From contig OZ316899.1 of the NCBI GenBank assembly GCA_973895155.1, forward strand, positions 16,457,974 to 16,521,973: a stretch of DNA of 64,000 nt, written 5' to 3'. This stretch comes from Marsupella aquatica. Its lineage: Eukaryota > Plantae > Marchantiophyta. The notes beneath the pieces are model-generated. The model was given only the letters and a program-made list of their open reading frames with translations. It had not been told where the DNA came from and made no database searches. The stretch's first letter is position 1, and each line of letters opens with the position of its first letter. The position numbers were made by a program, and so were the translations under genes. Of this stretch, positions 1-39,652 are shown piece after piece.

Positions 1-1467
1 CAGAATGACAATGGCTCTAAGGATGAATGGGTTTAACCTCCCAAGCCTCTGTAGGACATCATATGTGAGAACTCCTTCCTCCCAAAGCTTTCTCAATTCC
101 TCCACTAGGGAAGCCAGAAACACATCTATGTTGGCAGATACAGCACTGTCTGGCCCTGGTATCAGTAGGACCATCAGAACAAAAAATTGCTTTGTAGTCA
201 TCCAAGGAGGAAGGTTATAATTCAAAATAGTTACAGGCCAGCACGAAAATTTGTTGTTCTTGTCTCCAAATGGGTTTACCCCATCCAATGACAGCCCAAG
301 TCTGACATTCCTCGGCTCAGCAGCAAATTCGGGATACATCTCATCTATTAGTTTCCATTGCCTTGAATCTGTAGCATGTTGTTGTAGCCCATCATCACTT
401 TTCTTGTCAGTTGCCCAAGTCATCATCTCCGAGATGGCACGGCTTCTGAACATCCACTGAAGTCTGGGAATGAGTGGAAAATGACGAAGTACCTTGGCGG
501 GAACCATAGACTTTCCTGAGTTCCGATACCTGTGCTTCCCACACTTAGGGCATGTCAACGATTCTTTATACTCCTTTCTGAAAAGAACATGCCCATCAGG
601 ACAGGCATGGATCGAATCATAGTTCAATCCAAGATTAGATATGCATCTTTTTGCCTTGTACATGTTCTTGGGCAAAATATTACCATCTAGTAGCACAGTT
701 GTTCGCAAGAATGCCAACAACTCAGAAACCAAAACATTGGGGACATTGTGGTTGCCGCAAATGTTCAGGAACATGATGACAAATCCCAGTTTATAACATT
801 TGCTACCGGGGTACAAAGACTTCCTGCCTTCCTGTATTTGCAGGGGAGAGCCAAACATCCCATCATGCCCAGGGGTTTCCTGCCCTATCTCAAACTCATC
901 AAGAGGCTCTTCGACAGGGGGCACACTTGCATCTGCAGCCGTATCCTCTTCGTTGTCCAGCCCATCATGAAATGCATCCAAGTCTTGGAAGATGTCTCTC
1001 ACCATCTCTTCCACATGAATTCCTTCGTCACGTGGTGCTGCCTGAGCACCATCCCGTTGGAGAGCTGACAACCCACAGAGACCAGCTACAACATTTTCAA
1101 ATGCACTAGGCAGAACCTCACTTGCCCGTCTTGCAGCATTGGCAACATCAAATTCTAACCTCCACTCCTCGTCAGAAGAATCTTCCTCTGCAGGATCATT
1201 CCAAACTCGATGTCGTGGATCTCTTCCATGAACCGCGATATGCCGCCAAACCTCATTCAGACCCCTGGTACGGGATCCTTGGCAGATTGCACAAGGACAT
1301 CTCATCCTACTGGCTCCTGAAAGTCTGGTTCGTAACCTTTCACGCTGCCAAAGCTTATTATCATGGCGTGATATCCTTGTGGGATGATGCAAAGGCAGTG
1401 CCTGTGCCCTGGGCTGGGTTTGGGGAGGGTGGTGACCAGGGTGTATTGTAACAGGCTGGAAGCTCTG
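1..1467 (-). CDS. CACTA Tnp2-family transposase A (transposase-associated domain + Transposase_21), runs off the left edge
   Basis: Not in the ORF track. Manual minus-strand translation is open: MRCPCAICQGSRTRGLNEVWRHIAVHGRDPRHRVW...YDSIHACPDGHVLF...CPKCGKHRY...VPAKVLRHFPLIPRLQ...EPRNVRLGLSLDGVNPF...WPVTILNYNLPPW...LLIPGP. Start uncertain: first in-frame ATG at 1305, possible splice acceptor near 1467. Confidence 0.92.
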
Positions 1468-1978
1468 CAGTCATGGACAGCAGTGAACAGGGATGCCTAA
1501 TGGTGGTATTTGTGTTCCATATATCCCTGACTGTATGTGCCAAAAGAGTTAACATAACGTGTAATAAATTCTCACAAACCCTAAACCACCCCAAAAGAAA
1601 AAAACAGGTTTGCGAGTAGTGTACCTATTGTCAAGTGAATGACACAAAATTCCTCAATGTTTGAGGGTGTCACCACCTCCACAGCTGTCCTCAAATGTAC
1701 CACCTCTGCATGTACACCCATGACCATATCAGAGTCCAATCATGTATAGTCATAGGCATAGGTGTGAGAGCGGTATCAGATATCTCACCGCCGAGATTTG
1801 AGCCCACCCAGTACGTTTACAGTGACACCCCCAGGCAGCAGGAAACAACAATCCGCCAACAGTAAAATAAGCCCAACTGCCACCAACCATAACAAGGTAC
1901 ATTAGTTCAAAGATCACATTTATTTCAATGATCTGATTTATACAAAAAAACTTGTGTCCAAACTGATGCTACTACTCC

Positions 1979-2857
1979 TCACTCTGATTCAGAATCGCTA
2001 ATGACCCATTCCTCACTTGTTGTCTCATAGTCCTCTCTGTAAGGATCCTGACCCTTCCGTGGCCAGGCCTCAAAAAGATCATAGTCCATTGGGTTTTGAC
2101 ACTTCCCAGCTGCTATTGATTCCACAAGCCAAGCATATGAAACCACAAACACATTATGGGACATGACATAAAAGTGAATTTCTCCCTTCCCAAACTTGCG
2201 GCAGGCTTTGGGATATGACTTAGTAATGACATGAGTGGTGTCCTCTGTTATATTCTCCTCCACTGTCCCACCTAGGTCAAGCACCGTGGACTTGTACACT
2301 TTGCACTTAACCTCTCCAATTCCCGTCTCCACAAATACCATGCTCAGCCCTTTCAGAATGGGGGTTGGTTGCTTCGTCTCCTCAGCCAACATACTCTTCA
2401 GCCTTCTAGAGCTCTGTCCTTTGTTGAGTACAGGTCCATATTGGACATCAGCAAGCCGTGCCTTTGCTTCCCAGACTTCTTGTTCAGCCCAAGCTGATGC
2501 AGTAGCTTCTTCATCCTCCCACAGCTCATATTGCTCAGTATCCTGTACAATCTGATGTGCTATGGAATCTGTGATCCAAGAGGCCTCAACTACTTTTAGG
2601 CCTTGCTTAGTAATTGCAGAATTCATGTAGGACCATGACCACTTCTTTATCACTGATAGCCATGTTCCTGCAACAACATGTGTAGTCTCTGGAGTGATGT
2701 CCTGAACTACAGTGCCATGGAGCTCAGAGAATCGTTTCTGTACAGTTGGCCAATGCACTTTGGTCAACCCATGCTGGCCATGGACCAAAATGGCTCTAAC
2801 CCCTGTAAACACTGCTGGGTGGTCACACTTTCTACGTTTCCCAGGCTCCATGTACAC
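1979..2857 (-). CDS. Intronless tandem-BRCT protein (292 aa); BRCT domains resemble the plant DNA polymerase lambda N-terminal BRCT
   Basis: Two repeats with BRCT hallmarks: VFTGVRAILV...HGTVVQDITPETTHVV...VVEASWITDSI and ILKGLSMVFVETG...LGGTVEENITEDTTHVI...KFGK...VVSYAWLVESIAAG. Basic N-terminus (GKRRK), acidic tail, no polymerase domain. Confidence 0.8.
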   Translation of the reverse strand: MYMEPGKRRKCDHPAVFTGVRAILVHGQHGLTKVHWPTVQKRFSELHGTVVQDITPETTHVVAGTWLSVIKKWSWSYMNSAITKQGLKVVEASWITDSIAHQIVQDTEQYELWEDEEATASAWAEQEVWEAKARLADVQYGPVLNKGQSSRRLKSMLAEETKQPTPILKGLSMVFVETGIGEVKCKVYKSTVLDLGGTVEENITEDTTHVITKSYPKACRKFGKGEIHFYVMSHNVFVVSYAWLVESIAAGKCQNPMDYDLFEAWPRKGQDPYREDYETTSEEWVISDSESE

Positions 2858-3521
2858 ACACCCTACGTGATGACAGTGAATTTTGGAAGAATGGGTTCAC
2901 CTGACAATACAAGGACAACAAAATTCCTGCTTTTTGAGTTGATCTGGCCCACTGGTGCTCAGGTCCGATTTTGATAGGTACAAGGGATATGTGAACAATA
3001 CGTACTAGGCACCTGCACGGATGCAGGACATTGTTTGAATATATACTACAAAATCCATATCGAAGGTGAAATGAAGTGCAACCAACTTGTCATGGCACAT
3101 ACATATTTTGTTGTAAAGGAGGATACGTTCAATGACAAACTTATAGGGCAATTTGATTAATCGCATGCCTGATAATTTATACGCTTACAACTTAGAAGTC
3201 CTATTTTAATTTAGCAGTCTGATGAAAGTGTTTATGAAAATGACCACTCAGCCTAAATACTTCCAAGAAGGCTTGTAAGGATAAGTTTTTATAGGCATGT
3301 ACCCAGCCACTGACGCCAGCGCACAAGATAAGTGCTGCCTATATAAACTTGCCTACCCAACTCCTTTTCAAAATTGGAATCTCTGCAATCTCAAAAAAGA
3401 GTACATCCACATCAGGTGCACTGTGCATGTACAATGTTCAGCTTCACAGCCAAGATATGTGATCTCTCACAGGAGTGCGCGAGGTAGGATCAATGGCATG
3501 GCGATGACAATAAAATATCCA

Positions 3522-4124
3522 TTAATCAACACCATGTGCAGAGTGATCATAGATTTCTCTATCACAAGCATAACCCTCTGCTTGACGATCTTTCAGGCAA
3601 TGATAGTGCCACATGGTGGGACACCTAGCACAGTGGACTATGTCAGTCCAGTACTCATGATCATGCTCACCACATGCCTTGCACCTATGAAGTGGGCAAG
3701 CTGTGGCATGAGCAGGCAAACACTCAAAACAGAAAAATCTCACACAAAAACGGTCTGGACATTTCCTAACATTTGCTGTAGCATCAACAGAGCCCTCATA
3801 GGACCCCAACTTCCCACACTGTGCACACTTAGCCTACTTCTCCAAACAATCAGTGCACATCCAGTCTCCCTGGTGTGTTGACGGGAGGCCCACCCCTGGA
3901 CAGTTGTTTTCTGCAGCAAGGTCAGACTCCGGGTTGAGGTGGAAATGCCTCATGCAAGGGCCCTCACAAATGACCAGGCCCCCACCATCATCACAAATGG
4001 CACAACAATGAGCTGCCTTCTGGAAAATCTGACTTGCAGAGAAGTTAGTAGCATCTGCCCCAAGTACACCTGTGTTTCTCACCTCTGTCACACGCTTTTT
4101 GGCTTGAATTTTAGGTCGTGCCAT
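3522..4124 (-). pseudogene. EDM2/NSD-type composite PHD-finger protein, broken by a single in-frame TAG (3834-3836)
   Basis: ORFs 3834..4124 and 3522..3809 are in the same frame. Joined: CAICDDGGGLVICEGPCMRHFH...C...WMCTDCLEK*AKCAQCGKLGS...VRKCPDRFCVRFFCFEC...CPLHRCKAC...HCARCPTMWHYHCL, matching the Cys/His spacing of the EDM2 PHD array as I recall it (CAICDNGG..CEG.C.R.FH / C..C..LGS / CPLH.C..C / C.RCP..YH..CL). Confidence 0.78.
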
Positions 4125-4135
4125 GCCTGCGCATG

Positions 4136-4279
4136 AGATAGACTCTACAGTTTAGCAGACTGCACAGAAAGTAATATATATTTAGCATTTAAGGTACAAA
4201 GGCATTTAGATAGACTCTACAATTTAGCAGACTGCACAGAAAGTAAAATATATTTAGCATTTAAGGTACAAAGGCATTT
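4136..4279. repeat. 72-bp tandem duplication (2 copies)
   Basis: AGATAGACTCTACA(G/A)TTTAGCAGACTGCACAGAAAGTAA...GGTACAAAGGCATTT at 4136 and 4208, directly upstream of the PHD gene. Confidence 0.9.
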
Positions 4280-4880
4280 GCTACTGCAATGAATTGGAAT
4301 GGCCACACAAGGATGCAGAGCAGACATACTTTTGGTATGTTGAGCCCACACACAAACCTGATCCCCTAATACAATTGCTCCACAACACCTCAATTTTAAT
4401 TGTGGCTATGATTCACCAAAGGAGATCTGCAACAACATTTCATGCATTTGAATCACATACAATAGTCGTGACATGTAAAACAGGCATTCTTCGAAGAGGA
4501 TTGGTATGAAGCAGTGTCATAAGGGTTGAAATTTATACATCCTAAATAGGCTATGATAGTGGCTGAGACAAATAAGTGATGCATAAATCACATTTTACAG
4601 GTTATCACATGGCCCATTAATTCATTGAACGTTGCAATGTTCACCAGGTTAAAGCAGTCATGAAAGCAGTCTTTCAATAGAGACTTTTATGCGAGTTTGC
4701 TAGCGTCTTAAATTAGGATATTTTGCTTAGTGCAGGCATAATAGGATATAAGTTATGTACTGTTGACCCTAAACCCTGGACCCAAAATTGCTCATACATC
4801 AAAATTTTAAGTAAATATCCTCTATGTTGAAGTCAGAGTGTTAAGCTATAGGTCAATGGTATCTGGTCTGTGCATGCGGT

Positions 4881-7800
4881 GTGACAAGTGGTCCTCTAGA
4901 GCATGTGATCCAAACATGTGTAGACACCAAAGTCACCGGTGGTGGGGTCTGGGAGGGCAGGACAAGTGACATCACCAGGCACACTGCAGGATGGCGAGTG
5001 GTTCCAGATGATACATTGTGCTCTGTGCAAAAATCGGCATCCAAGAGAATGGTCATCCAATTCTGCTACCGTTTAATGTACCTATTGCCAGGAACTTGGA
5101 AGGAGGCCAAGCGTGTTCTCTCATCAATTGGCATGGAATATCATATCATTCATGCATGTGTGAATGATTGCATGTTATTTCATGGGGCCGATGAGAAGAA
5201 GACACAGTGTACTGAATGTCATGAGCCACGATATGACCCCAACATGATTACAAAGAAGGTGCCAAGAAAAGTTGTTCGTTGGTTTCCCATCATTCCTCGG
5301 TTGTTGCACATGTACAGGTGTTCTGATTTGGCAGAGTTGATGGTATGGCATAAGACTCATCGATCAGAGCCTGGTGTTATGCGGTTGCCAATTGACTCTC
5401 CTGCAGTCAAACATATTGAGGAAACATGGCCAGACTTTGCACATGATCCTCATCATGTGAGGTTGGGATTGGCATCTGATGGGGTTAGTCCTCATGCCCT
5501 TGGAGGCAAGGGAAGACCTACATCAGTTTGGCCTGTGGTTGTGATGAATTACAACCTTCCACCATGGCTATCCATGAAGAAGGGGTTCCTCTTGCTGTCT
5601 TTGATTATTCCAGGTCCAAAAAAGGTGAAGAACTTTGACACTTATTTGGCACTATTGATTGGAGAACTCCAAAAACTGTGGGGTGGAGTGTGGGCATATG
5701 ATGGCAGGAAAAATACAGGAGGCATTCCACGTGTATTTAAATTGAGAGGGGTAGTTTGTTGGACAATGCATGACTATCCTGGTAAGATGACTTTTTGACC
5801 ATATGCCACCCTTCTTTGATATGCTCTTTAATATACTTGTTTGTCATGTGACAACCCTAACATTTAGTCTGGTTTTATTTTTGGTGTAACCAGGGTTTGG
5901 CTTTGTCTCTGGATTGCAAACTCAGGGGTACAAAGCTTGCTCCACCTGTGGTCCACAATTGCAAGATATGGCAATTTGGTCCCCATGGCTTAGGAAGACT
6001 GTTTACATTGGGCATACAAAGTTTCTTCCGATGGGGCATGAGATGAGGTCTGACCCACTTTTATTTTCCTCCTTTGACATGCCCCTTGGTGATATGCGGG
6101 AAATTCCGGAACCAACAACTTTTGGGCATTGGAAGTCACTAGATGATAGGGTGGCAGACCCTGATGATCCCCTCACCTTTGATGGTACTGGGTTGACGAG
6201 GTGGAGTATACTAGCCAGTTTGCCCTATTGGTCAGAGTTGAAGATCCGCCATCTTTTAGACCCCATGCACATAGAGGAAAATGTGGGGAAGGCGTTGATA
6301 GCTCATTTTTATGGGGAGAAGGACACTAACTTCAGGGAGGCATGTGAAGAGGTGGAAATGCATCCAGATGTATGGGTACAAGTTGATCCTGCCACAAGTT
6401 TGGAACATCATCCTTCTGCTCCTTGGGTGCTTAGTGTTGGCCAAAGACGTGAATTCCGGAATCGTATAGGGGAGATGCGGTTTCCTACAGGCTATGGTGC
6501 CAATTTGAGGAAAGCTTTTGGGATGGAGGACAATCACAAATGGCCACGGTATCTCAAGACACATGACTATCACCGCTTATTGCAGCATATATTGCCAGTG
6601 GCAATTATAGGGTTGGGGACCAAAGAAGTGCAAGATGCCATTTGGTCATTGGGTCGTTTGTTGAGATGGATATGCTCAAAGGAGATATATGTGGAAGAGA
6701 TTCCTAGAATGGAGGTATTGGCTGCTGAGGTGGTTTGCAAGTTGGAGAAGGCCCTCCCTCCTTCCTTCTTTGATTGTCAGGTTCATTTACTTGTGCATCT
6801 TGTGAGGGAGGTTGCCATTGCTGGTCCAATTCATTGTCGATGGATGTACTGGCTTGAGCGTTACATGTCAGTCTTGAAGGCTTATGTACGTAACCGTGCA
6901 CGAGTGGAGGGAAGCATAGCTACAGGATACTTGGCTGCAGAGAGCATATTTTATTGTAGTAACATCTTGGCCACCATTGATCGGACTTTACTACGTACTT
7001 GGATGGAGGAGAGGCAAGAGGAGGAGGACCGTTTAACAGGAGCAACAAAAACATGCATGCTTACATCAACAGAGTGGACACAGTTGAATACATTCATGTT
7101 GAGTAATAGCAATGTCATGGATGAATGGAGGGAGTTTTATGACAATGCCAAAAGAATGAGTCAAAGGGCAAGGATTTTTCCTAAGTTGCATGTGTTTATG
7201 AAGGAAAAGTTGGTTGAGTTGGATGGCATTTTGGCACAAGGAGGAGATGTCTCACAGTTTCCTACTATGACAAATGACATTCGGACCATTGTTCATGGCC
7301 CTTTGAGAGTGGTAACATCCAAGACGGCCATGTGGACCCAAGGGAGACACTTCAGGTTTCACTAGTTCCTAACCTTGTTTTCCATATTCATGTACTACTA
7401 CTTAAGATATAGTAATCATTTTACTTAAGATAAGTGTGTTTTTCTCTTTTGGTATGAAAGGTTCCTCATAACATGATTAGTGTTTTTTGTGTAGTAGTAA
7501 CAATATATGGGTCTTGTTAATTTCAGGATTTCTTCCCTTGATGAGAAGAGGGCTCGTACTTTTGATTGTGGAGTTCAAGGGCAGTTTTGTCAGGACTCCC
7601 GGAGTAGCCGACATGACAGGAACATTGTTCGTGATGTTGTGCCACACTATGGGAAGATAGAGGAGATTTTGGTGGTCTCATATGACAACCAATCTAAGTT
7701 TGAGGAGTATGTCTTCAAGTGCAAGTGGTTCAAAGTGAACCTTGTTGGTAATAATCGCACTGTACTCCAAGATGAGAGTGGGTTTACACGGTTGAGGACA

Positions 7801-8013
7801 AGTGCCACTAGTTTTCAAGCATCTCATTGGCAAACATCAGAGCCATTTACTTTCCCATCTCACTTGGAGCAATGTTTCTACGTTCCATACCCCTTAGACC
7901 CAGAGTGGTCACTTGTCATCACATATGTGCCATGGTCTCGTTCCATTGTTTCAGACAAGCCAGACACTATTTTTGTGTCAGATGTAGAGGACGTTGAAGG
8001 TGACCAAGTGTGA
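4881..8013 (+). CDS. CACTA Tnp2-family transposase B (Transposase_21 + DUF4218 + DUF4216-like), spliced, N-terminally truncated or chimeric
   Basis: Exons ~5080-5781, 5894-7355 and 7527-8013; GT..AG introns 5782-5893 and 7356-7526 restore the frame (HDYPG|FGFVSG, RHFR|ISS). Motifs IHACVNDC, VRLGLASDG, NYNLPPW, LDPMHIEENV, LKTHDYH, RWMYWLERYM, YGKIEEI. Tnp2 homology begins only at ~5080 (LLPGTWKEAKR). Confidence 0.9.
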
Positions 8014-8414
8014 GAGACACTTATGGATATTTAAACCAAAAATCTATATCATGGATTGTTCATGTTGTTTCTTAATTAATATTTCATACACCATTAGTGT
8101 GGTAGGTATTTTCATTTTGGACTCCTACTTTCAAAAGAGGTCATGCATATAAGTGACATGGGTACTCCCTCCCTTATCCCTCCTCCCTCTTTGAACCCAA
8201 ACTCTCCTTCCTCTTCCAAAAACTCCATAGCTTTTTCTCCTCCCTCCCTCTTCGCTAAAGTCTCTCCTATTTTTAGTAAACCCTCTTTGGACTCCCTTCT
8301 TCCTCCGTCCCTCATCCACCTTCCAACTCCCTTCCTCCCTCTTTCACCTTTCACCTCCCTCCCTCCTCCTCCCCCATTCAAACTCTAACCTAGATGCACA
8401 CACAAGTCTAACAT

Positions 8415-8913
8415 AAACGTTTGCAAACTGTTTGCGAAACTAAACAAATCCCAACCAAATCGCAATTCTGCCATTTAAACCGTTTCTCAATTATTCCATA
8501 CTATACGCTTCACTATTTTGCGATATCCAGACCATCCCACCTTTACCATCCACATCGTTTCGCACATTTGCCATACAAACCCATCGCAAATTGTTTGAAG
8601 CTAACCTTTTCGCAAACATCCTCCAATACTAATTGTTTTGCATCATTAATGTTACCATGGTTTCGGACTTTCGGAGCGGTCGCGGAGCCTTCGTAATGTG
8701 TTTTGTAATCTCTGTAGTTTCGCAAACTATTGTGATACAATAAAGTTCGCAAAATGTTTGCGATGCAAATCGCATGGAAGACCAAAGTTGCAATACCACA
8801 AGTATCGCAAATTGCGATGCGTATTGAGTCATCAACGGTTTGAAGCATCTGGAATCGCAAACGTGTGTCCGGACTCAAATGAGCTTCGCACAAGGGCAAA
8901 ATATGTTGTAGTG
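8415..8913. repeat. CACTA subterminal repeat region and terminal inverted repeat
   Basis: Many direct and inverted copies of TCGCAAA/TTTGCGA-like motifs, ending in TGTTGTAGTG. Confidence 0.85.
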
Positions 8914-10705
8914 TTGGCGGATTTTGATTTTGAAGTCCGTCACGTTCCGGAGAAGACAAACACGGCAGCTGATGCGTTATCGCATAAGGACCATAATCGT
9001 GTCAATGGGATCACGATGCTCAAATCCGAGTGGTCATTTAAGGTTCTGGCTAAGGCGTATGGGGATGACAGGTTAGTCAAGGAATGGCAAAGCAATAGGG
9101 GTAGCCAAGGCAAGGCGAGGCATGTTTCATTGGGGTTGGATACCACGCAAAATGTCCAGTTATGGCGATACAAGCAGAGGCGTGTGTACATCCCAGAGTC
9201 TATAAGGGAGGTTCTGCAAAAATACCATGACTTGACCTGGGGAGGGCATGGCGGACAAGCTGCTATGTATTGCAGTATGTTGCAAGATGTGTATTGGCCG
9301 GACATGAAGCAATTGGTTCTTGCCACGTGTAAAGATGTTACTCGTGCCAAAAGAACCAAACGGTCTATAGGGCAAAAAGAGGACTTTTGCAACCCTTACT
9401 AGTAGTTGCGGCTCCATGGGAGTCCATCTCCATGGACTTCATTGTTGGGTTACCTGAGTCCCACAGTAGTAACTCCATCTTAACAATCGTGGATCATTTT
9501 TCCAAGATGGTGTATTTTTTGTCGACTACGAAAATGGTTTCGGCCCGAAAGGTTGCCGGTCTAGTGTTTGACAATATCTTCCGACAATGGGGATTACCGT
9601 TGCATATCCTGTCTGACCACGATACCAAGTTCATGGGCCATTTTTGAAAGGCGTTGTTCCGGTTATCCGGAACAGACCTCATTAGAGGATCAGCGTATCT
9701 TCATGAGAAGGATGGCCAAACAGAACAAGTGAATGATATCGTGGAGGGCTACTTGCGTCACTTTGTGACGGCCAATCAAAAGGATTGGGCAAAGCACCTA
9801 ACAATGGCCAAGTTTAGGTATAACTCAACCAAGCATTCGGCAACGGGGTTTGCCTAGTTTGTGTCGGCCATAGGAAGGATGCCAAGGGTGCCCTCCTGGT
9901 TCATAAATCTAGAAGCTTGGCAGACTGAAAGCAAGGTTCCTTCTACGGACAATCTTATTTGAGAGCGGCGCCTAGTTGTGGAAACAGCTACCAAGGGTAT
10001 GACCCTTGCCCAAAGTTGGTACAAGGAGCAAGGAGATAAACATCAACGCCAAGTAAGCTTTGAAATTGGGGAGAGCGTTTGGTTGCAGTTGAGACCGGAA
10101 TAATACCACGGGAACATAAGTAGGAAGCTGGCTCCCAGATATGCGGGGCCCTATGGCATCATACGATGGGCCCACAAGGATAATCTGGTTTTGGTGGTGT
10201 TGGAGACACCCAAGGAAATGGGCGTAGGCAAAAGCTACCATGTTAGCCGACTCAAGAAATTTCCCAAAGACAATGATCCCAACCGGGATCAAGTCTTGCG
10301 TCCGGACAACATGTTGGTGGAGGATGTTGAGGAGTTTGAGGTGGAGGCAATTATGGACCACCGTTACAAACGCAAGTTGGGAAGGCAAATCTTAGAGTAT
10401 TTGGTGAAATTGGCTGGCTATGATCAGGCCGAGAGTACTTGGGAACCGAAAGAAAATTTGGGTAATGCCCCATAGATCCTTGGAAGCTATTGTAAGTGAA
10501 GCGGCCTACCGCCGTTGTGAACTGGTACAGGCAATTGTAGCTGCTACCTTTGTGAGTTGTATCTTAGTTTCACTCCTCCCGGCCTCTTGAAGATAAAGTT
10601 GGATTGTGTGGGCGCTAGAGGTTGTTGGACGGCCGATTTGCTTTTTGCAAGTGGAAGTTGATGGTCCCCACCTCACATCTGTGGGCGGGCTGGTTCAAAC
10701 CAAAG
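8914..10705 (+). mobile_element. Decayed Ty3/Gypsy chromovirus (family X) 3' part: RNase H end, integrase, chromodomain, 3' UTR
   Basis: LADFDFEVRHVPEKTNTAADALS, HDLTWGGHGG, PWESISMDFIVGLP, DGQTEQVN, chromodomain EEFEVEAIMDHR...[17 protein letters not shown]; stops and frameshifts. Homologous to 24452-25750 and 60956-61670. Confidence 0.9.
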
Positions 10706-15271: not shown

Positions 15272-15471
15272 TATTCAAAGACAAGAAGATGAGAGTAGAA
15301 CATACACCAACAACTGGAGGTTCCCTCCAACTTCCATTACCTTATAGAGTCCCTAAGGACTCGATCTATTACATGCGGTTAGGTTGTTAGTAACAACCTA
15401 AGCTTTGGTTAGTTAGGACTAACTAACCCTACTATTATGACTTGGGTTAGTGTTAACTCCATATTACAACA
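15272..15471 (-). repeat. Copia 3' LTR (200 bp, TG...TA termini)
   Basis: Direct repeat of 21053-21251 with about 3 substitutions and 1 indel; adjacent to the PPT. Confidence 0.95.
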
Positions 15472-16102
15472 CTCCCCCTTGGTTACTTGAATAGCATAAT
15501 AAAGTAACCATCTTAAGGAGTAATACTAACCCTAGGTGGATTATTTTGGTACCCATAAGGAGAGTGTGGTCTCATTAAAACCCCCCGCTTTCTTCTGGGG
15601 GGAAAGAGTACCACCACTCTGTACATTGCATGGGTCCGTATTGAAATGTAGACGCAGAGTAGAAAAGAAAACTAAGAGTATTGCGCTGCAGCGTTCCTAA
15701 TAAGGTATGCGACCTAAAACTGGCTTATGTTAGTCTTTTTACGAAGGGAAGGAGTTTAGCATGGAGATGATGGGTCGCTGCGTCTCCATGTGTAATGCTT
15801 CATTATTTTTGTATAGACGGTGAAGGTAAATGGCTGCAACATGGATATCTTTGATTCTTGTTTAGCAAACAGTCGTGTGCTTCGATGGATGCGTTCTTGA
15901 TAGGCGAAGGTGAACATGCAAATGCATCTTGAGTGGTAATGGCTGCTGTGTCTTCTATAATTGTGCAGAAGATGGAGGCGGATCGCAATGGTCATGTCTG
16001 CTCTGTGTGCAGTGTGGATAGGCTTCTCATGCCGATGCCGTATGAATGTTCCTTATGCAAAATTGGTGGTAATGGCTTTGTGAATAAGTCTGCTCGGTTG
16101 TC

Positions 16103-19100
16103 TCAACTGGGTATCCATTCGACCTGAATTTGATCACCGTGCTGTTCATGTGTATAAAAGAATTTCGGTGAGATGTGTTTAATTCTGTCACCTTTTATGA
16201 AGCCATGAGCAATTTGATCCACACAGGGGCGGTTGTCTTCGTAAATAGTAGTGGGCTTTTGAAATTGTTGGCGACCAGTGTGCTTGTGGATGTGATGGAG
16301 CATGCTGCGTAACCATACACATTCTCTGTAGGCTTCATATAGAGCTATGGTTTCTGCATGATTAGAGGATGTTGTGGTTAGTGTTTGCTTGGAGCTTCGC
16401 CACGAAATTGCAGTGCCACCTTGAAGAAAAATGTACCCTGTTTGTGATTTGGCATCTCTAGGGTCAGAGAGGTAGCCGGCATCTGCAAATCCAATCAATT
16501 TGTCTTCAGCATCTTTCAGAAAAATAGACCAACGTCGACTGTGCCCTTCAGGTATCGAAAAATCCTTTTCAGCCCATTCCAATGGCGGATGGTTGGCTGA
16601 GAACTATGTCTGGCCAATAAGTTGACAGCAAAAGAGATGTCGGGACGAGTCTGATTAGCCAAATACATAAGGGCGCCAATGGCAGAGAGGTAGGGTTTGT
16701 CTGATCCAAGAAGAGGTTCTGTTTTGCCGTGCCTTCTGAACATATCTTTGTTAGTGTCTAAGGAGCGAAGCTCCATTGGTGTGCTGATAGGGTGAGCTGC
16801 TTGCATATTGAACTGTCGTAAAATCTTCTCTGTGTAGGTAGATTGACTAATCAGAATACCATTGTGCAGGTAGTCAAACTGAATGCCGAGGCAGAAGTTA
16901 GGTGGACCAAGGTCCCTCATTTTGAATGTGCCCTTCAGAATACTGAGTGTATGGGCTGTGAGTTGTGGTGTCCCGAATATATTCAGGTCATCTACATAGA
17001 TAGCTATTATGACGAATTCCTCTGCCTCAGATTTCAGAAATAGACAGGGTGCTAGCTCATCATTTATAAATCCCAAAGCTAACATTTCAGCTTGGAATTG
17101 TTTATACCACATCCGGCCACTCTCCTTTAGGCCGTACATTGAACGCAAGATTTGTATGGCATATTCCATTTGAGGTCTCTTGCTGCGTGCAGTAGGCACT
17201 TGCTGTGTAGTATGTGGTGGGTATAGCCCACCAGAGCGTACAGTAGGTCCTGAATTTGTAATTTGCACAATTAAGGGCTCAGTAGGAGCCATCTGGATCA
17301 TGCCAGATCGTAGTGATTGGACTGATATGCCTGACTTCTCCCCCTGAATGTGGAAAGACAATCTATTGAGAAGCTCTGGAGGAGCTTTCATGTAAATTTT
17401 GGTATCTAGCATGCCATACAGGTAAGTTGTTATTACATCCAGGATGTGCATGACTAGCTTGTGTAGTAAAGCAAACGCTATCATGTAGCGGTATGTAATT
17501 GAGTCCATCATTGGGGAATGTGTCAGGTCATAGTCTTGACCTGGGATTTGAGTGTAGCCCTTCACCACTAGTCTGGCCTTATATCTAACTACTTCGCCCT
17601 TGGCATTTCTCTTTCGGACGAAGATGAATCTGTAGCCGGTCAGATGGCTGTGGGTGGAGCTGGAGTGATTGGTCCAAAAACCTGGCGTTTGATCAAAGAG
17701 TCAAGTTCAGAGTTAATAGCCGCTTCCCATTGGGGCCAGTCTGGATGAGATTGACATTCTGTTACTGTCAATGGATCTGGAGTATCATTGGTTATCTCTT
17801 CTGATATCATATATGCAAATGCATCATCTATGGTAGTGGTTTCTCGTTTCCAGACTTTGCCTGAATGCATATATTGGATGGCTATTTTGTCATTGTCATT
17901 AACTAAAGTTGGTTGAGGTCCAGGGGGTGCAGGTGTGGGTCTTAGGGCTGTAGGTACAACAGCTGTGGTCCGGCGTTGCCTGGGTTGGCTATCTTTTGAG
18001 CCTAGTGGTCTGCCCCTTTTTGCCTTAGGGGGGGCTTCGGTAGCTAGTCGAGTGGGTTGGATTCATGCTGGTGCATTGGCAGCTGGTGTTAAGGACTGAG
18101 TGACATTTGCTGCATCATTAAAGGCGTCTGGGAGTTTCTCTAACATTTGTTGAAGGTGGAGGATTTTCTGTACTTCTGCTTCGGTTTGGACTGTCCGTGG
18201 GTCATGCTGGAAGGGGGGTTTTAACTGCCATTGTAATTCCGGAGTATGGACAAGGGGACTTGATGTCTGGTTCTCCATTAATTTGGGGAAATCATCTTCA
18301 ATAAAATCACAATCAAGGAACCGTGCCTTGAATAGATCTGCTGTAGATGGTTCTAAGTACCGAATAATTGATGGTGAGTCGAATCCTACATATATCCCCT
18401 GTTGTCTCTGTGGGCCCATCTTGGTGCGTTTGGGTCCCAAAATGGGGACCAGTACCAAGCAGCCGAAGATGCGAAGGTGAGAGACATCAGGTGGGATCCC
18501 GAACAATAATGGTGTGGGGTGTACTTGTTATAGGCAGATGGTCTGTATCTGATGAGGGAGGAGGCGTGTATGATAGCATGACCCCATGCTGATATAGGTA
18601 AATTGGTCTGTAGCAGTAAAGGTCTGGCTATCATCTGCAGTCGCTTGATTAAGGACTCAGCTATTCTGGAAGTGTACATGGGGGACAGGATACTGAACAT
18701 TGATCCCTGCAGTTTTGCAGTATGTGTCAAATGTCCGGGATGTGAATTCACCAGCATTATCGACTCGCAGGGTGCGGATCGGATGATCTGGAAATTGTGA
18801 TCTTAGTTTCAGTATGTTGGACAGTATCCAAGAAAATACAAGGTTTCTGGTTGATAGCAAGGAGACTTGGGACCATTTGGAGGAAGCATCAATGAGTACT
18901 AGGAAGTATCAGAAGGGGCCTGATGGGGGTCTATAGGGCCGCACACATCGGCATGTAGGCGTTCAAGGAATCGGGGTATAGAATATATGGTTTTGTCAAT
19001 GGAGGGGCGGATGACAAGTTTACCCTGGGAACATGCTGTGCAGATTTGTTTACTTTGGGATGGGTGTACGCCAAGTGGGATGCCGACTGTGTCCTGAATG

Positions 19101-20628
19101 ATTCTATGGTACATGGTGGTGCCCGGATGACAAAGGCGGAGATGGCATTGGTCTGTGAGTGTTCTGGTTGCCTTTTTTGTGTGATATGAATATATGTGAG
19201 TGATATAGAGGCCAGGAGGATGGTTTAATAGGGTCTCTTTGATTATGAGTCCTGTATTAGTTTCGGCCAAAATGTGCAATACCTCCTGTCGATCTTGTTT
19301 GCTGGTATGGATGTGTAAGTTGTTGTCCCGTATATTACAAAAACTTATCAAGTTGCGGGTGGCTATAGGGGCTATATGGCTGATCAAATGCGGATGGTTG
19401 TTCCTCCAGGAAATTGGACTATGGCTGGGCCATTGCCCTCTTCAATGTGATTCTGTCCAGTGATGGTTGTGACAGGGCAATTGGATCGAATGATCTTGGT
19501 GAAGTGTTTCTTGTGGCGTAGTATCGAGTGGGATGTTCCGCTGTCCACAATACAATGTGTGGGAGCAGGATTGGCAGGGAGGTCGCTTTGTAAACTAACA
19601 GTATGAACCTCAGGTAAGGGTGAAGAGACTACGTACTGGTCAAGTTCATTGGGTGCCTCTAGGAAATTGCCGTGACGTCCGGGGCCTAGTTGATGCAAAT
19701 TATCTTGATATAGCTTCACTAAGTGGGCAGGGGCACGACAATCTTTTTGTGTGTGACCTTGAGTTCCACATCTAAAACAAGTGGGAGTGTCAGACTTATC
19801 TCTGTTGTAGGTGAGGTAGCCTTGACCTCTACCGTGGATGGAGCTGCGGCCTCCTCCTCTGTTGCCTCTCCGGTTCCAGGTTCATCTCGGTGATGTTTGC
19901 CAGTCGTAGCTCCTGCCCATGCCCCGGTTGAAGCGGCCTCGTCCTCTTCCTGTCGAACGTCCTCTGCCGCCATAGAAACTTCTGCCTCTGCCTCTAGTGC
20001 TGCCTTTCCTCTGTTGAAGTGGGTCTCGGTCTTGGTTGGTGGTGCAGCATTGCCGGGTGGTCGAGTTTTGGCGTTTTCAAGGAGCAAGATCTGGTGCTTT
20101 TCTGCTAATAGCATGTAAGCGATTAGTTCAGAATATTTGGTAAAAGTTCATGTTACGGTATTGTGCCGAGAGTACCAGGTTTGTAGCATGAAATGTTGAT
20201 AGCGTCTTCTTGATTTGTTCTTCGTTTGCTACAGGGTGATTGCACACTGCTAGCTGTGAGGTGATACGAAATAACTCGGTGTTGTAGTTGGCAATTGTAG
20301 CATGGTCTTGAACTCGTAAGTTGATCCAATCGTGGCATGCTGCAGGGAGTGATATAGTTTTCATGTGATCAAAGCGAGATTGTAGGTCCTCCCAGAGTAA
20401 GTGTGGGTTATATTGATTCAAGTACTGTCGCTTCAATGGGGCTGCTAAGTGATGACGGATGAGGATGAGGGCCTTTGCCTTCTCTTGAAGAGTGCATCCA
20501 GCGTCTCTGGTGATCGTGTCTTGGAGAGATTTGGAGCTGAGATGTGCTTCAATATCCAGGGACCACGATAAGTAATTGGCCCCATCAATTGACAGTGCCT
20601 CAAATAAAAGTTTCTCTACGGTGGTCAA
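16103..20628 (-). pseudogene. gag-pol: Copia gag-pol polyprotein, frameshifted
   Basis: ORF pieces: gag (20128-20628), protease CIVDSGTSH, integrase HLRLCHPG / HADVCGP / RVDNAGEF, RT AIYVDDL, RNase H GFADAGYLSDP...YEDN. Confidence 0.9.
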
Positions 20629-21037
20629 TGTGTCTATCCGGGGTAGTCTATGAATGTGAACTGTTGGAAATCAATGTCGAATGTTCAGAATGCTATAAAT
20701 GTCGGATTTAGCTGCCTTGAGCATTTTCGTGTGGATTTCGTGGATGGATGACTGTGGCGCTCTTCCTTCGTAAAAGTGAATGTGGGCAATTTGATGGAAT
20801 GCAAAGCCTCGCTGCAGGAATGATCGCTGATCTCTGGTGGGGGTCAATTAATCTCAAGTGTTGGGTGACGCTTCACAGAGTTTGGAAGAAAATCACGAAG
20901 ATGAGTTGTGGATACAATCGCTTTTGGGTAGTGCGTAGTATGGCATTGATGGCTTGTGATCTAGCTTGTTTGATTTGTGGACAGTCAGTTCATGTGCCAG
21001 TGTATGAGAAAAAAAATTCTATGCTCAGCTTTGGCAG

Positions 21038-21052
21038 CTCGTGCTGATAACG
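21038..21052 (-). promoter_or_regulatory. Copia primer-binding site (internal half-tRNA-iMet type)
   Basis: CGTTATCAGCACGAG immediately after the 5' LTR, without a TGG start; this PBS type is characteristic of Bianca. Confidence 0.75.
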
Positions 21053-21251
21053 TATTCAGAGACAAGAAGATGAGAGTAGAACATACACCAAAACTGGAGG
21101 TTCCCTCCAACTTCCATTACCTTATAGAGTCCCTAAGGACTCGATCTATTACATGCGGTTAGGTTGTTAGTAACAACCTAAGCTTCGGTTAGTTAGGACT
21201 AACTAACCCTACTATTATGACTCGGGTTAGTGTTAACTCCATATTACAACA
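21053..21251 (-). repeat. Copia 5' LTR (199 bp)
   Basis: Direct repeat of 15272-15471, followed by TSD TAGGC. Confidence 0.95.
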
Positions 21252-24451: not shown

Positions 24452-27400
24452 ACCTTGGGGGTCTCCAACACCACCAAAATTGGATTATCCTTGTGGGCCC
24501 ATCGTATGATACGATAGGGCCCCACATATCTAGGAGGCAGCTTCCTACTTATGTTCCCGTGGTATTGCTCAGGTCTCAACTGGAACCAGACGCTCTCCCC
24601 AATTTCAAAGCTTGCCTAGCGTCGATGTTTATCCCCTTGCTCCTTGTACCGACTTTGGGCAAGGGTCATACCCTTAGGCGTCGCTCTCGAATAAAATCAT
24701 CCGCAGAAGGAACCTTGCTTTCGTCTGCCAAGCTTTCGGATTTATAAACCAGGAGGGCGCCCTTGGCGTCCTTCTTGTGGCCAACATAAACGGCGCAAAC
24801 CCCGTCGCCGAATGCTTGGTCGAGTTATACCTAAACTCGGCCATTGTTAAGTGTTTTGCCCAATCCTTTTGATTGGCCATCACAAAGTGACGCAAGTAGT
24901 CCTCCACGATACCATTCACCTGTTCCGTTTGGCCATCTGTCTCATGATGATACGTTGATCCCCTAGTCAGGTCCAACCCGGATAACCGAACCAACGCCTT
25001 CCAAAAATGGCCTGTGAACTTGGTATTGCGATCGAACAGGATATGCAACGACAATCCCCATTGTCGGAAGACATTGTCAAACACTAGACCGGCAACCTCT
25101 CAGGCCAAAACCATTTTCGTAGTAGGCAAGAAATACGCCATCTTGGAAAAACGATCCACGGTTGTTAAGATGGAGTTACTGTCGTGGGACTCAGGTAACC
25201 CAACAATGAAGTCCATGGAGATAGACTCCCATGGAGCCGCAGCTACTGGTAAGGGTTGCAGAAGTCCTCCTTTTGCCCTATAGACCGTTTGGTTCTTTTG
25301 GCACAAGTAACAACTTTGCACGTGGCGAAGGACCAATTGCTTCATGTCCAGCCAATACACATCTTGCGACATGCTGCAATACGTAGCGGCTTGTCCTCCA
25401 TGCCCTCCCTAGGGCAAGTCGTGGTACTTTTGCAGGACCTCTAACCTTAGAGACTCTGGTATGTACACACGCCTTTGCTTGTATTGCCATACCTGAACAT
25501 TATGTGTCGTATCCAGCCCCAATGACACGTGCCTTACCCTGCCTTGGCTACCCCCATTGCTTTGCCATTCCTTAGCTAACCTGTCATCCTCATACGCTGC
25601 GGCCAGAACCTTTGGCCACTTGGATTTGAGCATCGTGATCCCATTGACACAATGATGGTCCTTACGCAATAACGCGTCAGCTGCCGTGTTTGTCTTCCCA
25701 GGAACGTGACTGACTTCAAAATCAAAATCCGCCAAGAACATATGCCAGCGCATTTCCTTGGGGTTGAGCCTTGGCTAAGAACTGAAGTACCCGGTCGACG
25801 AGCTATCTGTGTGGATTACCACTTTGGGACCGTTCTTAAGGTAAATCTCCCACTTCTTCAACGCATAGATCACAACATACATTTCCCTTTCCGGTGTGAT
25901 CCAATGATTTTCCAACTTACATGACTCGAAGGCCACAGGACGCCCATCTTGATGAAGACAGACGCCAATGGCATAATCACTTGCGTCTGTCCAAATTTCG
26001 AACGGCTTTCCCATCTCAGGTAACTTTAGAACCGGTGGCGTTAGCATTTAGCCACTTAAGTTCTAGGAATGCTAACTCGCAATCCTGTGTCCACACAAAC
26101 ACTTTGATTTTCAACGTTAGTGCGTTTAGGGGCCTCGTGATCCTTGCATAGTCTTTCATGTATCTCCTATAGAACCCCGTAAATCCTAAGAAGGCTCTAA
26201 CTTGCCTTACATTGGACGGGCGCTCCCATTCTTTGATCTCCTTAAGTTTGTCCTGACTAGGCGTAATCCCTTCCGGGGTAAAGGTATGGCCGAGGAACTG
26301 AATCTCGTTCATTGCAAACTCGCACTTGCTAGGTTTAGCAAAGAGACGAGCCTTACAAAGGCCAGAGAACACTTCTTTGAGCAACTGCTCATGTTCCTCC
26401 AACGTTTTTGAGTAGATTAGGATGTCGTCAATAAAGACGACCACTCCTTGGTCCAACAAGTCATGAAAGATGGTATTCATCATCTTCATGAACGTTGCGG
26501 TTGCATTACACAACCCGAATGGCATAACCAAAAACTCATAGGATCCGAATCTTGTGCGCATCGCGGTCTTATACTCGTCTCCCTTACCCATGCGGATCTA
26601 GTAATACCCAGACCGCAAGTCCACATTTGAAAACTTCCTAGCCCCGGAGAGGCAATTGAAGAGGTCATCCATATGAGGTAACGGGTACTTGTTGTTTACC
26701 GTCTGCTTATTGAGGGCCCGATAATCTGCGCACAATCTCAAAGTACCATCATTTTTGGACACAAACAATGCGGACTCTTACTAGGACGAATGAACCCTTG
26801 GTCAATCAGCTCTTCCAAGGCGTTCTTCAACATCATTCGTTCGTTCAAGTTCAAACGATAAGGAGCTTTAGCTTGAGGGGCCGAACCTGGCTCCAACTCA
26901 ACTTGGTGATCCACTTCTCTCCGCGGGGGTAAACCTTTAGGTAGCTTCTGCGAGAGCACATCATTGAATTCCTCTAAAATTTCAGGAATTCGACCGCTGT
27001 CGGGCCTGACCTTAGCTGACTTAACCTTTGGCTACAAAGCAGCCTCCTTAACTGGGAGGAGATGAAAGAAGAAACATTCATGTCCACCCTTGAAGTCTTT
27101 CCACCATTGCTTTGCCAATACACACGGAGACAACCACGACATTTTACTTACTTTGAGAAATCTTTATTTATTTTTGGTAACTTTGTGTACAACAATGGGC
27201 TCACCACCCTTAATGGGAAAATGGAGCACTTCACCCCCCGGTTTCAAGGTAACATTGTGCTTTTTGAGATAACCTACCAACAAAAATGAAGTCTACGGCT
27301 AGACCGTCTAGAACGTAGAACATCTCATGACGAACAAAATTTTGTTGTTCGCCTGTGACCCCTACTCAAAGTCTTTGCACTACTCTCGACACTAACCCGT

Positions 27401-34600: not shown

Positions 34601-37048
34601 AAATAGGCCTTGGGAGAATGGGCATAACTTTGGCTAGGGGTATCCGTTGGGGCCCAAATGTTTTTGTGCTGAGTTAGGGGAAGGTAAGGCACCCCTTGGT
34701 GAAGGTGGAAACCCAGAAAAATAATCACTCAAATATATTTTTAGCGGAGGCCACGAGGGGGTCCCCATAGCTTGCAAACGGGAGTTGGCATGGGGGAAGT
34801 AAGACCAGGTTTTTAGGCTGACACTTCTTGCACCCGTGTCACCCAAGTTAGGATACATGGAGAAGAGCGTACCTCAGGGTAAAGGTGCAAGGCCGTTAGG
34901 GTAAGGAAAGTAAGTTGATAGGTCGGGGTAGTAAGTAAGAACTAGTAAATAAGGAGCCAACTTTGACATGACACAACTTGAGACTCACTCACTCTTTTTG
35001 CGAGCTTTCAAGTGGGTTGGGAAGCTGGTGAGGAGGACCATAAGTGAGAGCAGGTTTGGAGGTCAAAGCATGCAACTCATGTGTGGCATATTCCAGGGCT
35101 TGGAAGGAGTCAAGCAATAGGTTGTAGAGTGAGCTACAAACTATAGAGTTGGACTTTGTGTGTTAGGAGGAATTGGGGGAGGAGTAGTTGGACCCCAGGT
35201 CAAGCTTGGTGTGGTGTGAAAGGAGAATAGTATATAAGGAGAAAGTTTTCCTTTGTTAGGGACCGGGAGTCTCATCTCTTAAGTGGAATCTCTACCTTGC
35301 CAAGGTAGGGCTAAGCTTGAGAAAGGAGAGGTGGTCCATGTTTAGTGTGGAGAATGTGTAGTGAACTTTTGTTGTAAAGGTGATACAATAAAAGGAGACT
35401 TGCCAATCTTCATTGTGACCATTAAGTGTGAGTGCATTTGAAGCATATGAGAGCAAGAGAAGAGTCCATGCTATGATGTAATCTTGGTCTAAGCTTGAAG
35501 GGGATGTGCTAGTACAAAACCAAGGCCAAGAGGCAAGGTTAAGGTAGAGCACTACTTTGAGACTTAGAGAGGATTATAGCTTGAGGGTGGAAAGTATTTT
35601 GCTTGGTGTGTGGTGTTAACAAGAAGTAAGAACAAGAGGAAGAGTCCTTAGATAGAGGAGCCTTCTCTAGAGCTCAAAGGGGATGTGTGGACCCAAACCA
35701 AGGCCAGGGGGGCAAGGTTGAGGGGTAACACTACTTTGAGGGTCTTGAGGAGACTTAAGCTTGAAGAGGAAAGTACTTTGGTTCTTGGGTGTTTGTGTGA
35801 GACTCTTCTCTAAGGTGACAGCTTGGAGCGGAGATCCCCCTTGCTGATCCTTGGAGTAGAGGAGAGGGGAAGGGTGCGAGTACAAAAGTAGTCAAGGGGA
35901 CTACCTCTCTAGAAGTGCAGAGTTGAAACTACTTATGTGTCACTTGCCTCTCCAACGGTTAATACGTGCAAACCGCACTTTTCTTCGCTTAAACCGTTGG
36001 TATCGTATTACGGGGTCGTGGAGGGACGCTATTTGGATTCTTTTCACACCAGGATGAGTATTTTGGTTTCCGCTCCCGGAAATGTAGGTTTTGATCAAGT
36101 CTACCGACTACCCTCACCCCACAGCTTTTGATCAAGTCCTGCCGACTACCCCACTACACCTTCACTCGGAGTCACCCAAAGAGTGCTGTCACCACCCCTA
36201 CTCACAAGGCCGACTCAAACCAAGCAAGTTTCTTCAAATCATAGAACGGGAGAACACAATTCGGAAAGCGAAAAAGGGAGAAGGAACACACAACAAAAGC
36301 CCATCAAGTCAAATGTACAGATCCATATCTCTTGGGAAAAACGATACACATTGCATGAGTAACCCGGCCTCCTGCCGTCTACTCAACTCCTGCCTCTCCG
36401 GACAATGAGTATGGCTCCCCCTCACTACTCTGAACACGCTTTCAAACTCCTCAGGCTCCACTCTATCCCTCCTTGCTAACTTCACACTGAGTCCCCCTAA
36501 CTACTTCGGGGCTATCCCCCTAAATACTGAAAAATCACACCAAAGCACCCCTCACAGGGTCACAACGGTGGCGGCTACCCTAGCGGCGCCGCTAAAACCT
36601 TGCACTAAGAGAAATCCTTAAACTGAAGAGGAGCATGCGGCACACACATGCTGCTAAAACCCTAAACCCAAAACAAGGGGGCCGACGGTGCCTTCGACGG
36701 CGCCCCAACAGTACACGTGAACCCTGAAAGTGAGAGGCACCCCAAAATGGCCGAAACTAGGTGCCCTTCCAAGTGCACACCTGAGCTCACCCCTGGATAG
36801 CTCTTCTTTTCCTGCTTCCGAATCACTAAGTCGCTCCCTCAACGGACTTCAGACGCCTGAGTTATGGCCGTTTCCGTACCGCAAAAACATAAGTTCTCCA
36901 GGCCATAACTTGCTCATCCTGGCTCCGTTTGAGGAGCGCCGCCTCTTGTTGGAATCAGCTCCGCGAGCTCATCCCAACAAGCCCATGAGTGACCCCCCAC
37001 TAAAATGTTGGAAATCTGGAGGCCGTACACCCACGTCCGTACGCCTAT

Positions 37049-38905: not shown

Positions 38906-39328
38906 CCATGCATCCCAAAATCAATTTCTCAATCACCAATCCCGTCACCCGTGGCAATGTCAATTCCCTGGCCCGAAACAGCCCCCGTAGCCCGATCACT
39001 TAAATTCTCTCAATTTCCCGTCACTACTCCGTGCGGCCGCCACTAATGCCTGGAAGAATGACGCCAGCAAGCCCCACTAATCCACCATGAAAGAGAGAGC
39101 TTCAAAAATAATTAGAATCTGGAGAGAGCTTCCGGCAAGAGAGAGAAGAACCCCGTTTTTGCTTTCGGCAATGAGAGGGTCGTGCAAAAGGAAGAGGGAA
39201 AGAAAAAGGAAGGAAAAAAAAATAGAACCGAAAAAACTCCTGGCGCCTTCGCCATGCGCCCCGGCCCATTTCTCGGGCCTTACCCTTGCGTCCTCCTGCG
39301 CGCGGCCCTATGCAGGGCGCGCGGCCAT

Positions 39329-39652
39329 TCCTCCCGGCTCGCGGGAGGCCCTTCAACTCCCCCCCGCTCGCGTGATCCTCCCAGCTCGCGGGAGGCCCTT
39401 TAACTCCCCCCCGCTCGCGTGATCCTCCCAGCTCGCGGGAGGCCCTTTAACTCCCCCCCGCTCGCGTGATCCTCCCAGCTCGCGGGAGGCCCTTTAACTC
39501 CCCCCCCCCCGCTCGCTTGCGCTCCTTCAGCTCGCGGAGCCTCATTAATTGCCCGGGCACGCAGCCCTATGGGCTCGCGAGGCAGCCCCTTCAGCTCGCG
39601 GAGCCCCATTAATCGCCCGGGCACGCAGCCCTATGGGCTCGCGAGGCAGCCC
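39329..39652. repeat. GC-rich tandem arrays in 3' LTR: 4 x 47 bp + 2 x 64 bp
   Basis: Unit TCCTCCCAGCTCGCGGGAGGCCCTTTAACTCCCCCCCGCTCGCGTGA; second unit CTTCAGCTCGCGGAGC...GGCAGCCC. Confidence 0.93.

Follow-up and report, generated by a model that had tools for sequence, protein, structure and literature searches.

Stand-alone PHD and BRCT genes as probable accessory cargo of a multi-copy CACTA transposon in the liverwort Marsupella aquatica

Introduction

CACTA transposons of the En-Spm type, such as maize Spm and Arabidopsis Spm1/KAKUSEI and Spm3, encode TnpD together with TnpA/ORF2, and in their canonical form consist of a transposase and ORF2/TnpA (PMC4158355). Here we describe a CACTA element at the left edge of a 64,000-nucleotide stretch of the genome of the liverwort Marsupella aquatica (contig OZ316899.1, positions 16,457,974 to 16,521,973; hereafter the window). 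The element is itself of a known kind, sharing with the systems above a TAGTG end, Tnp2 genes with DUF4218/DUF4216 and a subterminal motif cluster. In contrast to the canonical arrangement, its place for a transposase and ORF2 is taken by two Tnp2 genes that have diverged in sequence and point away from each other, and between them lie two small genes, one for a PHD protein of the EDM2 type and one for a protein with two BRCT domains that compare best with that of DNA polymerase lambda (Pol lambda). As stand-alone CACTA cargo this combination is, as far as our searches reached, new.

The closest host relatives of the two genes belong to well-described systems. In Arabidopsis, EDM2 is reported to bind H3K9me2, and the AAE complex to promote full-length transcripts across heterochromatin (PMC7529245, PMC9910501). 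The window gene shares with EDM2 and EDM2-like proteins the atypical NSD-type PHD fingers and the motif H.I......P.RDHI, but it is a PHD module of about 220 amino acids without the RFD domain and the C-terminal part, and it is intronless and transposon-borne. For Pol lambda, residues R57 and L60 of the BRCT domain are reported to anchor the enzyme on Ku, and catalytically dead Pol lambda to block or impair gap-filling via that site (PMC12056208); the BRCT domain of Arabidopsis Pol lambda is described as binding Lig4 and XRCC4, and a link has been drawn between this polymerase and repair where transposons have excised (PMC4444747). The window protein has in common with the N-terminal BRCT of Pol lambda its clade, its best per-domain scores, a TGIG motif and conservative K/V/Y residues in its second BRCT. 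It differs in that the BRCT is duplicated, the polymerase domain is missing, an acidic tail is present, and the Ku-binding residues are lost in the first BRCT and variable in the family.

It is understood only in part how, in large plant genomes, cut-and-paste elements gain copies and avoid being silenced. The known helpers, TnpA and VANC, act on DNA methylation. More broadly, accessory genes that act, or have been proposed to act, on host chromatin include VANC of VANDAL, TnpA, the TET/JBP cargo of fungal DNA transposons (PMC12730594) and PHD or chromodomain fusions, and examples of PHD readers in fusion with transposons are already on record (10.1101/2021.11.30.470311). In contrast, the window carries its PHD reader as a separate gene, of EDM2 type and paired with a repair-factor docking module. 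Pack-CACTA elements likewise hold host-derived sequence inside CACTA ends, and hybrids of adjacent elements could yield two transposases; the cargo described here, unlike that of Pack-CACTA, appears to consist of whole, old, protein-conserved open reading frames (ORFs) and not of recent gene fragments. Neither PHD nor BRCT is mentioned in the main text, supplements aside, of a study of 962 Spm proteins (bioRxiv 10.64898/2026.08.24.746577), and a term search of an atlas of Arabidopsis transposon products gave no mention of PHD or BRCT cargo (PMC13547354). Among the titles examined, with Repbase, subscription papers and preprint supplements outside that search, we found none that describes BRCT cargo of CACTA or other DNA transposons, or a PHD cargo of this kind in CACTA/EnSpm.

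Results

The window is a transposon-filled stretch of land-plant-type genome, and its positions 1-8913 are the right part of a CACTA element. The right terminus (8897..8913, plus strand) closes with TAGTG at 8909-8913, and the three letters after it, TTG, fit the 3-bp duplication of the target that is expected, on the one side that is visible. The insertion site is the RNase H region of a chromodomain-type Gypsy retrotransposon (8914..10475, plus strand); a sibling copy at 24453-25735 is an uninterrupted, empty version of the site with TTG at the position of the junction. Just inside the terminus lies a subterminal cluster (8431..8861) of nine TCGCAAA motifs in both orientations. Nine of the 11 matches to this motif in the whole window fall in the cluster, and if one mismatch is allowed, 8400-8913 has 16, where an average 514 nt of the window hold 1.5. 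A TAGTG right end together with a subterminal motif cluster is a mark of CACTA/En-Spm elements. The first-pass annotation had placed the genes inside a CACTA terminus; with one terminus in the window, their place inside the element rests on this right end and on the tiling of contigs described below.

The TCGCAAA core is also the core of the target motif of Arabidopsis TnpA-Spm1, CCVTCGCAAA; in the same report TnpA-like proteins are given as restricted to flowering plants (bioRxiv 10.64898/2026.08.24.746577). No TnpA-type Pfam match was found in the ORFs scanned within 1-8913, although such a gene could lie to the left of the window.

Both transposase genes encode CACTA Tnp2. Tnp2-a, a TnpD-type transposase of which the 5' part is seen, occupies 1..1470 on the minus strand (PF02992, Transposase_21, E 1.3e-42) and is open to the window edge, which cuts off its 3' side. 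Its first in-frame ATG, a provisional start, is at 1305, and a match to PF13963 (E 1.6e-4) stays under the cut-off of that model. Tnp2-b (4845..8013, plus strand; PF02992, PF13960 and PF13952) was modelled with exons 4845-5781 (ATG at 5049), 5894-7355 and 7527-8013, which yield an open frame of 961 codons. The spliced product contains the acidic motifs DGVSP, TMHDYPG and MHIEEN, which we take to be the DDE triad. A Transpos_assoc domain was not detected upstream of Tnp2-b; a short alternative frame there (4856-4966) has a CxxC...RH...G pattern loosely like the zinc finger of Tnp2-a, without Pfam support. The two transposases are 42% identical over 228 amino acids and lie divergently on opposite strands. 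Two genes separate them, the BRCT gene and the PHD gene, both on the minus strand. The earlier claim of three co-oriented minus-strand genes between two Tnp2 genes is therefore right as to the three minus-strand frames and their order (PHD, BRCT, Tnp2-a), but only two of them stand between the transposases, the third being Tnp2-a itself, and the second Tnp2 runs the other way. The spacer common to the divergent genes contains, directly upstream of the PHD gene, a 72-bp tandem duplication (97%; 4136..4279). No further BRCT or PHD remnants occur in the six frames of the window. The ratio of observed to expected CpG in the cassette genes is 0.2-0.37, and CAG/CTG is depleted over the whole window (about 0.67). 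A bacterial promoter scan, whose model is unsuited to plant DNA, gave nothing above shuffled sequence.

The PHD gene (3444..4124, minus strand; ATG at 4124, stop at 3444-3446) is an intronless frame of 226 codons with three fingers matched by the Pfam models PHD-1st_NSD, PHD_NSD and PHDvar_NSD. Pfam models confirmed the domains of all three minus-strand genes. The PHD copy has two in-frame stops that the first-pass annotation had passed over. Among 117 candidates we found five homologues of 217-245 amino acids, which are 82, 75, 52, 36 and 37% identical to the window protein and all end at the same DHISW motif. In the family alignment 24 of 38 Cys/His positions are invariant, compared with 27 of 188 other positions. 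All six members match NSD-type PHD models; the best solved relative by profile is NSD2, and the top match of an atlas search (0.93) is a streptophyte cluster of NSD-type PHD proteins. The sole strong match to a longer protein is to one of 1339 amino acids from the grass Zizania, which has an RFD domain; the match begins at the first finger and reaches as far as the H.I......P.RDHI motif at the C-terminal side, at 28% over 188 amino acids (26-28% overall range). Furthermore, the module scores 99 bits on a 1305-amino-acid plant ORF with RFD and PHD domains, against 32 on NSD2, which lacks the C-terminal motif, so that the earlier description of the gene as EDM2-like stands. An RFD-plus-PHD layout is that of EDM2; the matched records themselves are not named so. 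The family thus has the atypical PHD cassette and the C-terminal motif of EDM2 but, at 217-245 amino acids, not the long C-terminal region or the RFD domain (PF12047), which is found in sequence P0012 and in the ORF of locus L001 but in no family member. Next to the EDM2-type rows the family stands as a separate, deep group. By these comparisons the gene derives from the EDM2 reader module and is old, intronless and stand-alone.

A search of longer proteins revealed no fusion of PHD to transposase or BRCT, which is weak evidence (two of 3393 candidates remained, the EDM2-type protein and NSD2). The PHD alignment matched 12 loci in metagenome contigs, all of them distant, being either EDM2-type transcripts of plants or unrelated PHD genes, and none with Tnp2 or BRCT by tblastn; in viral contigs it matched no locus.

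The BRCT gene (1979..2851, minus strand; ATG at 2851, stop at 1979-1981) is intact and intronless and encodes 290 amino acids, with BRCT1 at 2821-2516, BRCT2 at 2365-2069 (E 3.8e-15 for the two stretches) and an acidic tail. Its two closest homologues, found among 482 candidates, have 294 and 295 amino acids and share 61% and 54% identity in alignments that cover 98-99% of the length. A profile run against 1.84 billion representatives returned 59 matches, of which 12 reached E ≤1e-10; five further twin-BRCT proteins of 264-313 amino acids are 22-26% identical to the window protein. Catalytic domains of family X polymerases (Pol X) were seen neither in the window ORF nor in the 12 best matches, all of at most 313 amino acids and seven of them scanned with Pfam or aligned over their full length. 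Likewise, no fusion of a transposase with a PHD or BRCT cargo domain occurs in the matches examined.

Scored domain by domain, proteins with Pol X catalytic Pfam domains reach 35-55 bits and REV1 reaches 35.5, whereas multi-repeat TOPBP1-type proteins and PARP reach at most 29; two members of the matched clusters are named DNA polymerase lambda. For eight of eight family domains (one of them tied) the best score among 46 host BRCT domains, four from Pol X and 42 from other proteins, was to a Pol X BRCT. A tree of 81 domains (sequences P0031, P0067, P0074 and near-duplicates omitted) joined the family to Pol X, apart from TOPBP1, REV1 and PARP, with support of 93/94. BRCT2 has TGIG, as does human Pol lambda, and K/V/Y at the positions of R57/L60/F61. 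By these comparisons, and with limited outgroup sampling, both window BRCT domains have their nearest match in the N-terminal BRCT of Pol lambda and not in the repeats of BRCA1 or TOPBP1. The earlier label of repair adaptor can accordingly be narrowed, at the level of sequence, to a Pol-lambda-type BRCT.

An AlphaFold model from 21 sequences has two BRCT folds, which a long helix and a linker of low confidence connect (predicted local distance difference test score, pLDDT, 77.5, up from 31 in a model from three sequences; predicted template modelling score, pTM, 0.43). Against packed tandem BRCTs its root-mean-square deviation (rmsd) is 12-16 Å, a figure to be read with the low pTM, at which the relative orientation of the repeats is unreliable. 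A fold search confirmed the BRCT fold without separating the classes (Pol lambda at rank 14, Z 11.6, rmsd 2.1 over 94 residues). Of the tandem BRCT first described, the two BRCT stretches hold, and their packing as a phospho-binding tandem is conjectural. All matches of the BRCT protein in the atlas search were below 0.9 and are leads only. Neither the BRCT alignment against metagenome, viral and prokaryote contigs nor Tnp2-a against viral contigs gave any locus. A stand-alone BRCT protein of 143 amino acids annotated in Riccia fluitans (KAL2607684.1) reaches 70 bits against the family profile and is placed within the clade of the family and Pol X.

The cassette is repeated together with its spacers. 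Contigs of four public runs (X1, X3, X5 and X9; four studies, four organism labels) were aligned to positions 1-9300 at 80% likeness, giving 3240, 7384, 2012 and 753 aligned contigs with 30 of 30 bins covered in each run; what follows is drawn from the 40 of 1174 differences and 32 of 13,493 pieces that were listed. In the order X1/X3/X5/X9, the listed variant at 1702 in the spacer between Tnp2-a and the BRCT gene is carried by 13/18/6/1 contigs, that at 2798 in the BRCT gene by 16/14/1/1, that at 3162 in the BRCT-PHD spacer by 1/7/1/1, that at 3659 in the PHD gene by 4/28/5/0 and that at 4382 in the spacer between the PHD gene and Tnp2-b by 6/16/4/1. Since so many distinct contigs at single sites in cargo and spacers exceed what one diploid locus can supply, the cassette is multi-copy. 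Among the contigs listed, bridges were found at 1380-1715, 1811-2148, 2573-2871 and 2842-3390. The first-pass annotation had held that single-copy genes would undo its case; the many variant contigs in four of four runs speak otherwise. Internal TAGTG motifs at 4557 and 4728 were considered as termini and ruled out, since contigs from three runs lack 4 nt at 4560 and the motif is missing from the loose-end consensus of 10 contigs at 4748.

Both cargo genes appear old. In a neutral simulation of the BRCT ORF with 1000 trials per identity level, the frame was still open in four trials at 62% identity and in none at 54%. Because several homologues of each gene are open, nearly gap-free and of equal length, their divergence (36-82% identity for PHD, 22-61% for BRCT) points to long purifying selection. 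The named host relatives found are distant, the plant's own genes being outside the comparison. The other condition under which the first-pass annotation would have failed, recent capture and neutral decay, is mostly at odds with the data, the full-length open homologues being too diverged for neutral drift. The window copy itself is probably decaying, judged by the stops in its PHD gene and by private differences in Tnp2-a, five of the six listed changing an amino acid; the two listed differences in the BRCT gene are both silent, in what is a tiny sample.

Other elements fill the rest of the window. A young Gypsy element at 35931-50667 has long terminal repeats (LTRs) of 4.09 kb that are 98.7% identical, 47-bp tandem repeats and an intact gag-pol frame of 2140 amino acids at 39981-46403; each LTR holds an open frame of 623 codons (37049-38920 and 47746-49617, minus strand) that has a coiled-coil region and matches nothing in Pfam under E 0.01. 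A Copia element at 15272-21251, with 200-bp LTRs 98% identical and broken coding frames, is inserted in a Gypsy element. Amid Gypsy-related repeats, a 408-codon frame at 56912-58138 (plus strand) has coiled-coil character and no significant Pfam match.

Discussion

Based on the anatomy of the element, the repetition of cassette and spacers, the open and diverged homologues and the closest host relatives, we believe that the BRCT and PHD genes are retained, functional accessory genes borne by a multi-copy CACTA element, and put the probability of this at about 0.6. The element would keep both genes since both help it. We propose, much more tentatively, that the BRCT protein acts as a polymerase-less mimic of Pol lambda, which would dock at the Pol X site on Ku or on XRCC4-Lig4 and there displace or delay the fill-in by Pol lambda at the excision break. 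This may tip the donor site towards repair templated by the sister chromatid, with a gain in copy number, or may merely alter the footprints. The PHD protein, for its part, would bind H3K9me2-type marks over the element and mimic or compete with EDM2, so that transcripts of the two transposases could run through silenced chromatin. That a CACTA lineage has in this way made a toolkit of two host modules, a Pol lambda BRCT mimic on Ku and an EDM2-derived reader, is an idea that we hold with the same reserve.

Several findings weigh against this proposal. The PHD gene is broken in the window copy by TAG at codon 97 (3834-3836) and TAA at codon 201 (3522-3524); the closest homologues carry Q and R at these two places, and both stops would fit decay through methylated cytosine. 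Because the search picked up homologues of the two genes solely as open ORFs, it is biased towards intact copies. On the PHD side all five homologues, and on the BRCT side the closest two, are ORFs without a name on Logan contigs of 1-3 kb. Any homologue below about 80% DNA identity may be a host gene, as none was placed in a genomic context. Six of the 12 PHD loci in metagenome contigs (L002-L007) are plant transcripts for short stand-alone EDM2-type PHD proteins of 216-380 amino acids; their contigs hold no transposase, RFD is absent in the one scanned, and they apparently represent a separate origin of a reader-only EDM2 form. On the side of the BRCT protein, the window BRCT1 has H/T/V at the positions of R57/L60/F61, and among the 24 family domains with a residue at the Ku-binding arginine only five have R and three have K. 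As a basic residue is kept in eight of 24 domains and not in the window BRCT1, Ku binding is a prediction. In the PDB profile and fold searches Pol lambda appears among many BRCTs and not first, and the BRCT tree, with 101 columns and 81 rows, has no rows for BRCA1, Lig4, XRCC1 or Pol mu. As for the contigs, none of those listed spans the cassette, the joints between the PHD side and Tnp2-b (4065-4792 and 4363-4907) have only 23-26 letters on their short side, summed contig depth is not the same as copy number, and the window itself may come from the sample behind run X1.

The rival explanations differ in what they make of these facts. Tnp2-a may belong to a second CACTA family, with its 5' end at 1621, that entered an original element made of BRCT, PHD and Tnp2-b at a point 360 nt behind its BRCT gene; the composite would then have been amplified afterwards, and the co-orientation of Tnp2-a would be accidental. 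If 1621 is the 5' end of such a nested element, the cargo goes with Tnp2-b, which it would serve in the way proposed above within a different architecture. We consider this doubtful, though it is the strongest of the alternatives. It starts from a CACTA-end-like motif at 1621-1609 (minus strand), CACTAC directly followed by TCGCAAA, a pair which arose in only nine of 3000 Markov resamples but was noticed after the fact; the motif may be a relic terminus, a nested terminus or a lone binding site. The mere 42% identity of the two transposases agrees with nesting, and hybrid CACTA elements from adjacent insertions are described in a review (PMC13317346). The motif is single, however, with no cluster like that at 8431-8861, and it sits in a stretch (1531..1624, minus strand) that resembles a 94-nt GT-AG intron with a telo-box and a T fraction of 0.41, like intron 1 of Tnp2-b. 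Moreover, a contig from another organism label bridges 1380-1715 at 96% without a gap, and no loose end at 1621 is among the loose ends listed (1236 further ones are not listed). Less probable again is passive hitch-hiking of the Pack-CACTA kind, in which recently captured copies of host PHD and twin-BRCT genes, selected in the host, are spread by the element and decay. The broken PHD gene, the stand-alone EDM2-type transcripts of other plants, the annotated Riccia fluitans BRCT and the want of genomic context for the homologues all suit such a history. Set against it are ORFs that are whole, intronless and start-to-stop, with the BRCT frame intact; closest named host proteins that are far off (26-28% to the grass EDM2-type protein); homologues that are unnamed ORFs on short contigs with the graded identities expected of diverged transposon families; and the silence of the two listed BRCT differences, few as they are.

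A reading that we think improbable, more so than either of these, takes the BRCT protein for a phosphopeptide-reading tandem of the BRCA1/MDC1/TOPBP1 type, recruiting checkpoint or recombination factors or reading gamma-H2AX, while the PHD protein directs the site of insertion. Foldseek and the PDB profile do put Rad4/TOPBP1, BRCA1 and Rtt107 first when both repeats are summed, whereas the per-domain scores favour Pol X BRCTs, and the model, with its long helix, low-confidence linker and pTM of 0.43, lies 12-16 Å from packed pairs. Transposon-fused PHD readers are reported as common and tied to targeting (10.1101/2021.11.30.470311), and the window copy does lie in a Gypsy-rich region; yet neither cargo domain is fused to a transposase in the matches examined.

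If this proposal is true, the transposon would encode, in its BRCT protein, a mimic of an end-joining factor, and this protein would provide a direct and testable handle on how an element may bias the repair of its own break. The PHD gene, in turn, would represent the capture, as an EDM2 module, of the host machinery for gene expression across heterochromatin. A fern genome paper is said to report an expansion of BRCT genes. Should our proposal hold, what looks like an expanded family of BRCT or PHD genes in such a genome can be cargo of transposons.

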